A stretch of 64,000 nt of DNA from an uncultured Actinomycetes bacterium. GTDB taxonomy: Bacteria; Actinomycetota; Actinomycetes; Streptosporangiales; Streptosporangiaceae. The notes under the pieces are model-generated. The model did not search any database. It was not told the DNA's origin and saw nothing but the letters and a program-made list of their open reading frames with translations. The stretch is from positions 223,641-287,640 of the forward strand of contig CAWBKD010000005.1 in the NCBI GenBank assembly GCA_963789225.1, in the 5' to 3' direction. Shown in pieces: positions 59,266 to 61,417 of the stretch; the stretch's first letter is position 1; each line of letters begins with the position of its first letter. A program made the translations under genes and the position numbers.

Positions 59266-59602
59266 GTCCGGCGATGGTAGGCGCTCCGCCGCCAGCGGGT
59301 CCGGACATCCGAAGGTTGTTCATCCGCGTGGCTCCCAGCCGCATGCCGCAACCGCGCCCACGCTGCCTGCTCCGGATGGCAAGCTCCTGCCAGGCTCGTG
59401 TCGGTTATCGATTGTGTCGCCGGCCCGTGGTACTGTTCGAACAAGGTTCGAACACCACTCGAATCTGGGTTCGCAGGAGGACAGTGAGGGGCATGGCCTG
59501 TCGGTCGCCTACTCGCGCGGCTATTCGCGCGGATTCGCGTAACATTACTCATCCGTTCCACCCGGTATGCATGCGGCAGCCAAGCCGCACGGCAGGAGTG
59601 TC

Positions 59603-60190
59603 ATGGATCGCGATGAGGTCGAGGAACTTCATTTCATCACGCCGATCGGCACCCTGGACTCGATCTTGGAGCACGGGATCTTGTGCCACGATCGTGCTTC
59701 ACTCCTGCCGCACCGCTCGATTGCAAATGAATCCGTGCAAGACATCCGGCGCGGCAAGTCGGTACCTGGCGGGCTCAGCTTGCACAGCTACGCAAATCTC
59801 TACTTCAATGCGCGCAACCCAATGATGTACTGCCGACAAGATGAGCCCGACTTGGTCGTAGTCCGGGTTTCACCGGCGGTACTTGATATCCCCGACACAG
59901 TTGTCACTGACGGTAATGCCGCAGACCAGGATACGCGGTTCTACCCGTCACCTGAAGGACTCCTGTATCTTAATTTTCAGCGTATTTTCGCTACGTGGTG
60001 GACTGATCCCGATTACTGGACATACCTGGAGAAGAAACGTGTCAGAAACGCTGAAGTTCTAGTGCCGGGTCTGGTACCATCAGAATATATCGAAGGTTGT
60101 TACGTCGATACGCAGGAGAAGCGTAGAGCCTGCCAAGCTTTGGAGGACTTGCCCGTCGTTAATGTTCGCAGGGAGATCTTCTTCAGATGA
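59603..60190 (+). CDS. darT: DarT (DUF4433) ssDNA thymidine ADP-ribosyltransferase toxin
   Basis: AGGAG lies 5 nt before ATG 59603. It has LHFITPIGTLDSILEHGIL, SLHSYANLYFNARNPMMY, VVTDGNA and RNAEVLVPGLVP (catalytic Glu context). G+C is low. Confidence 0.88.
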   Translation: MDRDEVEELHFITPIGTLDSILEHGILCHDRASLLPHRSIANESVQDIRRGKSVPGGLSLHSYANLYFNARNPMMYCRQDEPDLVVVRVSPAVLDIPDTVVTDGNAADQDTRFYPSPEGLLYLNFQRIFATWWTDPDYWTYLEKKRVRNAEVLVPGLVPSEYIEGCYVDTQEKRRACQALEDLPVVNVRREIFFR

Positions 60191-61368
60191 GTAACGTGCG
60201 GATACTCGAAGGTGACCTACTGAAGTCGAAAATGCACGCTCTAGTTAACACGGTGAATACCGTGGGCATCATGGGTAAAGGCGTAGCGCTAGCATTCAAG
60301 AACCGGTATCCGGATATGTACCGTGATTACGTGAAGCGTTGTGAGCAGGGAGAGGTCCGGCTCGGCGAACCGTACGCGTATCGGGCCTTGGATCACGTGA
60401 TCGTGAACTTCCCGACCAAGCAGCACTGGCGCTCGGTCAGCCGCCTTAGTGACATCGAGACTGGCCTGGACTACCTTGAAGACCACTATAAGGAGTGGCA
60501 AATCAGGTCGCTGGCGGTGCCGCCTCTAGGCTGTGGCAACGGTCAGCTTGAATGGCGAGTGGTCGGCCCGATCCTGCTTCGGCATCTCAAGCGCCTAGAC
60601 ATTCCCGTCGAGCTGTACGCACCTCACGGGAGCACTCTACTTGGTGAAATCCAACTCGATCTGCTCGACCAGCTCGATCCTCAAGGCGACGACCAGCAGT
60701 GGCGGCTGGAACCGTGGCTCGTTGCAATTGCTGAGACCGTCCACCGATTGGAATCACTGCGTTATCACTGGCCTGTCGGCCGCGTAATGCTGCAGAAGAT
60801 CGTCTACTTCGCAACTGCGGCCGGTCTACCAACTGGCCTGGAATTCCAGCGCGCCAGCTATGGTCCGTTCGCACCTGAACTCAAGGCTGCGGTCGGGCGT
60901 CTGCAGAATAACGGCATTCTCACAGAGCGCCAGCGCGGCCGAATGATAGAGATGCGTACCAGTTCGGCCCTTGAGGATGCACGTGCGAGCTACGGAAACC
61001 AGCTCGACCAGTGGAACGATCTGATTGACCGACTCGTTGACCTGGCAGCCCGATTCGACACAGCCGGTGCCGAAATCGCTGCGACCGTCCACTATGCCGC
61101 CTACGATCTGCATAACCGGTTGGACCGCAGGCCCACCGTGGCTGAAGTCGTCGATTACGTCGAAGACTGGAAGAGTCGACGTACTCCAAAACTTGAACGC
61201 AGCGACATCCTCCGTGCTGTCGTAAATCTCGGGACACGAGGTTGGCTGCAGGTTGATCCTGATAGTGCAACAGAGCAGGAAATCGAAGACCTCGTAGCCG
61301 GTTGCACGTTAGTTTCGTTACCAATACGGTCAGTGGCCATATCGCCGCAGACCGTTGCATTGATCTAA
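60187..61368 (+). CDS. darG: DarG macrodomain antitoxin (DNA ADP-ribosyl glycohydrolase) with C-terminal toxin-binding region
   Basis: ATGA overlap with darT. It has [62 protein letters not shown] and [15 protein letters not shown]. The C-terminal half has a [15 protein letters not shown]...SYGPFAPEL motif. Confidence 0.9.
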   Translation: [393 protein letters not shown]

Positions 61369-61417
61369 ATGATCATGGTCGGTCCCGCGGCCGCGTTCCG
61401 TGGGAGGAGGCAGCCGG

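Follow-up and report, generated by a model that had tools for sequence, protein, structure and literature searches.

A horizontally acquired, probably functional DarTG2-type toxin-antitoxin module in a decayed tRNA-Ala island of an uncultured Streptosporangiaceae bacterium

Introduction

What is the pair of overlapping genes that lies, embedded in remnants of mobile elements, about 13 kb from the presumed replication origin of an uncultured actinomycete, and what purpose might it serve? The question is raised by a stretch of 64,000 nt from contig CAWBKD010000005.1 of GenBank assembly GCA_963789225.1 (Streptosporangiaceae; positions 223,641 to 287,640 of the forward strand), which is called the window hereafter and in which position 1 is the first nucleotide. 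An initial annotation, made from the sequence alone, had read the two genes as a darT-darG cassette. The present analysis points, with a probability of about 0.85 that covers identity and mechanism, to a functional DarTG2-type toxin-antitoxin (TA) and anti-phage module, which would have been acquired horizontally as a unit of 1.95 kb and now sits in a tRNA-Ala integrative element that has since decayed. Its specific role, defence or stabilisation of the element, is much less certain than its identity.

The darT and darG genes

The genes and the domains of the antitoxin are located as follows:

59603..60190, plus strand: darT, 195 aa, by family a toxin that ADP-ribosylates single-stranded DNA (ssDNA); an alternative start at 59567 would give 207 aa
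60187..61368, plus strand: darG, antitoxin of 393 aa
60187..60630, plus strand: macrodomain of DarG, about aa 1-148
60700..61302, plus strand: C-terminal DarT-binding domain of DarG, about aa 172-372

Both reading frames were found as the initial annotation had described them. All peptide strings quoted there occur in the translations, and the stop codon of darT overlaps the start codon of darG in the sequence ATGA (60187-60190). Position 59603 is the likely start of darT, because the motif AGGAG stands 6 nt 5' of the ATG and most homologues have 195 aa. Wherever a fetched clade locus covers darT, the gene lies directly 5' of darG on the same strand. Both genes are kept by purifying selection: the ratio of nonsynonymous to synonymous substitution rates (dN/dS) is 0.13 for darT and 0.08 for darG when compared with the closest relative (L026), and 0.08-0.25 against the other loci.

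On L015, a near-identical contig of the European Nucleotide Archive (ENA), darT is missed by the public gene call, which gives instead an open reading frame (ORF) of 283 aa at L015 4365..5216 (window 58974..59825), in which an integrase fragment is fused to darT read out of frame. The Logan contig L016 has darT called correctly.

Family and active site of DarT

The first protein had been assigned to DarT (DUF4433) motif by motif, and the profile searches upheld this assignment. It matches Pfam PF14487 (DUF4433) with an E-value of 9e-37 (127.2 bits, cut-off 22.5) and the DarT model of PADLOC with 2.8e-36. A profile built from the DarT sequences of the clade was compared with solved structures (7omu, 7omv, 7yk3_A and 8baq) and matched Thermosipho DarTG (1e-34), Thermus DarT (3e-33), Mycobacterium tuberculosis DarT (4e-18) and Escherichia coli DarT1 (7.4e-8). 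In the numbering of the 195-aa form, residues R49, H61, Y67, M74 and E151 align with R51, H65, Y71, M78 and E160 of Thermus DarT, the catalytic roles of which have been summarised (PMC9967889). All five are present in the window protein, E151 being the catalytic glutamate that the initial annotation had pointed out. Across 21 aligned DarT sequences R49, H61, Y67 and E151 do not vary, and M74 hardly does.

The pair is assigned to the thymine-specific DarTG2 type because its antitoxin is a macrodomain protein and not a NADAR protein (PMC11543638). Guanine specificity was considered as well, from the Asn (in 'TDGNAA') that stands at the position of Thermus H119. This was dropped: the thymine-specific DarT of M. 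tuberculosis and the DarG-fused DarT of Thermosipho also read 'DGNAA', so that an Asn at this position is uninformative on the choice of base.

Domains of DarG

The macrodomain that had been recognised by eye at the start of the second protein was recovered by all models. DarG matches Pfam Macro with 7.9e-15, the PADLOC DarG model with 5.3e-92 and the NCBIfam equivalog NF048014 with 288.6 bits (cut-off 250), residues 5-347 covering model positions 2-337 of 338. Its macrodomain matches the DarG proteins of T. aquaticus and M. tuberculosis at about 1e-36 (1.5e-35 for M. tuberculosis). Residues N24, K31, K78, H80 and W81 correspond to N22, K29, K80, H82 and W83 of T. aquaticus DarG and are invariant in the clade; the roles of the T. 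aquaticus residues, with K80 as the catalytic one, have been described (PMC5179494). The initial view that the family is known and the system is not new was confirmed.

The C-terminal half of DarG had been suspected to carry a DUF4065/Panacea-like signature. Scanned alone, this half gave SocA_Panacea (PF13274) with 13.2 bits, below the cut-off of 25.7 (E 0.17), residues 202-256 aligning to profile positions 1-61. The sequence profile of the region reached the C-terminal domain (CTD) of M. tuberculosis DarG (7yk3_B) with an E-value of 0.18 only. An AlphaFold model of the C-terminal half, calculated from 37 sequences, had a pLDDT of 89.6 and a pTM of 0.85, and its sole strong match in the PDB was again 7yk3_B (Foldseek E 4.5e-7, TM-scores 0.62 and 0.72, 193 columns). 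The C-terminal domain was modelled separately, the full-length model (pLDDT 68) having returned macrodomains only in the fold search. According to the model, the C-terminal half is the standard DarT-binding domain of DarG and not an added Panacea module. DUF4065 proteins have been reported in a 2026 paper to be homologous to the C-terminal domain of DarG (PMC13621843), which accounts for the Panacea-like impression. Remote homology is thus plausible, while the signature itself stays below threshold and belongs to a normal DarG domain.

The end of DarG depends on its context. The ancestral stop codon, which closes a protein of about 378 aa ending in ...GCALISS, has been lost in the window, L026 and L017, and darG then reads into the flanking DNA to give 393, 445 and 417 aa, respectively. 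In the window the read-through tail has 15 aa, the final ten codons or so coming from flanking DNA, and this tail, within 61300..61368, is modelled as disordered.

A discrete module of foreign composition

The module and its leader have the following limits:

59390..61337, plus strand: darTG module (leader, darT and darG), 1.95 kb, G+C 0.566
59390..59602, plus strand: darT leader, 213 nt, conserved; presumed promoter/operator and 5' untranslated region

These limits come from comparison with independent contexts, in which nucleotide homology to the window starts at 59387-59391 and ends at 61304-61337. Identity of the module to that of the window is 92% in L026, 82% in L027, 80% in L023 and 77% in L030. 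The contexts are the following:

L027: module beside Tn7-like genes
L029: module beside IS4 / DDE_Tnp_4 transposases
L030: module beside IS66
L028: module with an integrase, DUF3987 and tRNA-Ser
L031: module with tRNA-Ser and Tn3
L018-L021: module in an island of 7 kb, with tRNA-Ala at one limit and a copy of its 3' 44 nt at the other
L017: 44-nt tRNA-Ala core about 95 nt past the darG stop, placed like an attR
L001: inverted module, about 3 kb from tRNA-Ile/DUF3566; DarG identity 74%

The low G+C content, taken initially as a sign of foreign DNA from hand counts of a few lines, was confirmed by systematic counts. It is 0.52-0.60 over 59500-61500, against 0.63-0.77 in the rest of 40000-64000 (intervals of 500 nt). 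At third codon positions, G+C (GC3) is 0.61 for darT and 0.63 for darG, against 0.92-0.94 for dnaA, dnaN, gyrB, gyrA and fpg. In every host the module has a G+C content of 0.54-0.57, against 0.64-0.69 in the flanks. The darTG module is foreign in composition and mobile as a unit.

In L028 a full-length integrase gene stands just 5' of darT, and the succession of integrase, darT, darG and att/tRNA end is met again in different integrative elements. A tRNA-Ser(TGA) gene was seen on the opposite strand within 300-600 nt after darG at L028 11440..11529 and L031 11729..11813. Terminal inverted repeats at the ends of the module were considered and rejected; the resemblance was weak and by eye only, and L027 and L023 do not conserve the right end. 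Plasmids searched with the DNA of the module gave no match, and protein searches of plasmids and phages gave distant relatives only (30-35% identity).

The decayed tRNA-Ala island

The surroundings of the module contain the following features:

57303..57377, plus strand: tRNA-Ala(TGC), detected with ARAGORN and Rfam; presumed site of integration of the island, on its attL side
57503..58948: part of the island that varies between strains, with a flavoprotein-like ORF followed by a minus-strand pair (88-aa ORF and DUF6247)
57972..58081: second integrase N-terminal remnant, fused to the end of the flavoprotein-like ORF; diverged, 84% identity
58231..58497, minus strand: 88-aa ORF, no family match
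58501..58830, minus strand: DUF6247 ORF (1.9e-15)
58949..59389, plus strand: tyrosine integrase fragment, N-terminal/central part, cut by the left edge of the module
61400..~61835, plus strand: MobF/TrwC relaxase pseudogene, about 145 N-terminal codons, frameshifted and then truncated

As the initial annotation had stated, the cassette lies between an integrase fragment and a relaxase fragment, in an island at tRNA-Ala. The integrase fragment matches Phage_int_M only, with 24.6 bits (cut-off 27), and no integrase catalytic domain was found in any frame. The relaxase fragment matches positions 12-66 of the 286 in the TrwC profile with 1.4e-07, and it matches MobF with 5e-07. Its frame shifts near 61690; a stretch VSFSKSIS, which we take to resemble a relaxase motif, stands at about 61806, and a minus-strand gene starts at 61845. 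An intact integrase together with a far tRNA repeat, the marks of an intact integrative element, was not found in the window, and its island has nothing that corresponds to the integrases of L028 and L018.

The flavoprotein-like ORF matches the Flavoprotein family with 3.7e-10. The 88-aa/DUF6247 pair has the size and arrangement typical of a second TA pair; NCBIfam gave no family for this pair or for a neighbouring protein of 244 aa. The segment 57503..58948 is missing from L015, a metagenomic contig of another assembly that is 99.7% identical to the window (compare L015 4215..4340), and there an intact integrase N-terminus follows directly after tRNA-Ala. The island is hence still being remodelled. 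The two integrase remnants suggest tandem elements that later recombined. Past the window end, L015 carries tandem repeats of 126 nt at 13304..14239, in a 324-aa minus-strand gene adjoining a Ser/Thr kinase gene, and tandem repeats of 54 nt at 9654..9825, in an ORF of 533 aa.

The island stands in a conserved neighbourhood. The gene order of the window is dnaA, dnaN, recF, gyrB, gyrA, DUF3566, tRNA-Ile, HAD, fpg and tRNA-Ala, the usual order of the actinobacterial origin region. The genes dnaA and dnaN lie at 44431..45945 and 46278..47381, and the spacer between them holds one perfect TTGTCCACA DnaA box at 45975..45983. When one mismatch to TTGTCCACA was allowed, the count in the whole window was not above chance, and the position of oriC is therefore taken from the gene order. 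The distance from darT to this presumed oriC is about 13.3 kb, in agreement with the 13 kb estimated initially. The origin context had also been called notable. Nearness to the origin stands; no functional tie of the cassette to oriC was seen, and its position has an ordinary explanation, since tRNA-Ala lies just downstream of gyrA and close relatives of the module occur in many unrelated mobile contexts. Origin proximity is a by-product of the tRNA-Ala integration hot spot beside gyrA.

Mode of action and role of the module

By homology with characterised systems, we infer enzymatic activity, a thymidine target and a role in defence or stabilisation for the window pair. DarT would use NAD+ to ADP-ribosylate thymidine in ssDNA, and replication would stall. 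The macrodomain of DarG, with Lys78, would strip the adduct, and the helical domain at the DarG C-terminus would bind and block DarT. Should the supply of DarG fail, for instance when a phage infects the cell or the element is lost, free DarT would be expected to stop growth or phage DNA replication. Phage defence and stabilisation of the element are both likely roles.

A narrower explanation is that darTG is a pure addiction module, which would only stabilise the island by post-segregational killing and have no part in phage defence. Several observations fit with it. TA pairs commonly stabilise elements, and insertion of DarTG as a locus stabiliser has been proposed (PMC5179494). The module always occurs within mobile elements, in L028, L018 and L017 between the integrase gene and the att/tRNA end, and the window island holds the second TA-like pair described above. 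The element of the window, however, can no longer excise, and yet darT and darG are still under selection. PADLOC includes DarT and DarG among its known or candidate anti-phage models, and the literature describes DarTG as anti-phage defence. Considering also that one role does not preclude the other, addiction as the sole function is rather unlikely.

The reading of the pair as a functional module in a former integrative element has to be weighed against some contrary observations. Over the full length of the NCBIfam equivalog model NF048013, DarT scores 101.9 bits where the cut-off is 150, which marks the protein as a member of a divergent subgroup and not as an exact equivalog. A repeat of the tRNA-Ala 3' core (attR) was sought in the window and in the 7 kb beyond it (L015) but did not turn up, and we therefore infer integration at tRNA-Ala from the relatives L017 and L018-L021, which have the repeat. 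Finally, N19 of Thermus DarT (motif THIDN), a contact to the adenosine ribose of NAD+, corresponds to Thr17 in the window protein (TPIGT). An Asn occupies this position in all four solved DarT structures (7omv, 7omu, 7yk3_A and 8baq) and in 14 of 16 clade members that were aligned, the exceptions being the window and P0121, both with Thr. When the 29 clade sequences that were read are considered, the exceptions grow by P0122 and P0123, both with Ser, and P0131, with Asp. The closest relatives of the window DarT carry Thr or Ser, and such a replacement at the NAD contact could reduce the activity of DarT.

From this last point, an attenuated or decaying toxin has to be envisaged: a DarT weakened by the change from Asn to Thr, in a pair that is kept mainly because DarG gives immunity against incoming DarT, or that is a mere relic. 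The clear decay of the element around darTG and the loss of the ancestral darG stop are in line with such a scenario. It is nevertheless improbable. The darT gene is full length with every catalytic residue present, and its dN/dS of 0.13 was obtained within the Thr subclade. The Thr/Ser state is common to at least four distinct sequences, indicating that it is maintained and is not a recent lesion, and either residue is still able to donate a hydrogen bond.

That darTG has been recruited as an origin-linked regulator, modulating replication initiation by ADP-ribosylation of oriC so that the 13-kb distance would reflect its role, finds a precedent in M. tuberculosis, where DarT acts on oriC and some 20 kb of surrounding DNA and shares a transcript with dnaB (PMC12170906), and a parallel in the second origin-proximal lineage, L001, but can hardly be credited for the window, given a module of foreign composition inside a decayed mobile element, the lack of dnaB linkage, the opposite orientation of the L001 cassette, the Tn7-like, IS and other non-origin contexts of closer relatives (77-92% nucleotide identity), the only remote relationship to the M. 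tuberculosis proteins, and the action of DarT in trans on ssDNA, for which gene position need not matter.

Leader and candidate operator

The leader of darT contains a candidate promoter element and operator:

59431..59464, plus strand: candidate -10 and operator; TAnnnT hexamer (TACTGT), then TTCGAAC at 59436 and 59447 and a degenerate copy at 59458

Conservation of the leader begins exactly at 59390 in an alignment of four contexts. The TAnnnT hexamer followed by a TTCGAA core is found 138-167 nt 5' of darT in 11 of 11 clade loci, even where the leader does not align elsewhere. In five loci the core is doubled at a distance of 11 nt, and most others have a TCGAA half-site about 12 nt further on. 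The pattern TTCGAAC-N4-TTCGAAC has four matches, all at this element, far more than the 0.13 expected by chance. A scan for sigma-70 promoters and terminators was uninformative, with one match, inside darG, and no terminators.

The consensus of the actinobacterial LexA (SOS) box is TCGAAC-N4-GTTCGA. In the window leader, a perfect palindrome of 9 bp around a 3-nt spacer spans 59434..59454 and contains TCGAAC-AAG-GTTCGA, with N3 spacing; TCGAAT-CTGG-GTTCGC at 59459 has two mismatches to the LexA box. Several relatives have TCGAAC-N4-GATCGA in their leaders, one base off the mycobacterial LexA box. The TTCGAAC element therefore resembles a LexA box without matching it and is best described as a candidate operator. 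It is tempting to see the actinobacterial DarTG clade as a distinct regulated subtype, in which the TTCGAAC repeats would link toxin expression to DNA damage through LexA, or would let the winged-helix-like part of the DarG C-terminal domain act in autorepression, and in which Thr or Ser at the NAD contact would tune toxin strength in the window subclade. This proposal is speculative, its chances being low.

Significance and comparison with known systems

Beyond a correct annotation, the locus adds little: DarTG is well studied, and relatives of DarG are found in thousands in public data. What is new is of minor detail, namely the change from Asn to Thr at the NAD contact, the clade-conserved TTCGAAC repeats of the leader and the lost darG stop. 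The module boundaries and the conserved leader nevertheless provide a ready unit for cloning and tests of regulation, and the Asn-to-Thr/Ser variant offers a natural means to probe the NAD site. The locus also illustrates that defence genes near an actinobacterial origin can arise merely by insertion of a tRNA-Ala island.

Among the closest known systems, the Panacea/DUF4065 (SocA-like) antitoxin domain shares with DarG the alignment of residues 202-256 to PF13274, at a score well under the cut-off. DarTG1, represented by the guanine ADP-ribosyltransferase DarT1 of E. coli C7 (PDB 8baq), belongs to the same DarT superfamily and shares the N-terminal NAD-binding strand with the window DarT. It differs in its antitoxin, which is NADAR/YbiA-like, whereas the window has a macrodomain DarG; no NADAR domain was matched in the window antitoxin by the Pfam and NCBIfam scans, and DarG has no action on guanine adducts (PMC11543638).

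The DarT-DarG pair of M. tuberculosis (Rv0059/Rv0060; PDB 7yk3 and 5m3i) has the same architecture, a related macrodomain, the same fold of the C-terminal domain and likewise an actinobacterial host. There, however, the pair belongs to a core operon linked to dnaB, whereas the window pair lies in a mobile island. The C-terminal domains are only 16-18% identical, and the window DarT is farther from M. tuberculosis DarT than from Thermosipho DarT.

A close likeness also exists to DarTG2 of Thermus aquaticus / Thermus sp. 2.9 and Thermosipho africanus (PDB 7omv, 7omu and 5m31). Shared features are the two-gene operon with overlapping stop and start codons, the DarT fold family with its R/H/Y/M/E catalytic set, and a DarG composed of a macrodomain with catalytic Lys and a C-terminal DarT-binding domain; the 'DGNAA' at the position of Thermus H119 is shared with Thermosipho DarT. 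The window pair differs in a DarT that is only about 30-35% identical and scores below the NCBIfam DarT equivalog cut-off, in the replacement of THIDN by TPIGT (N19 to T), and in the 15-aa read-through tail of its DarG.

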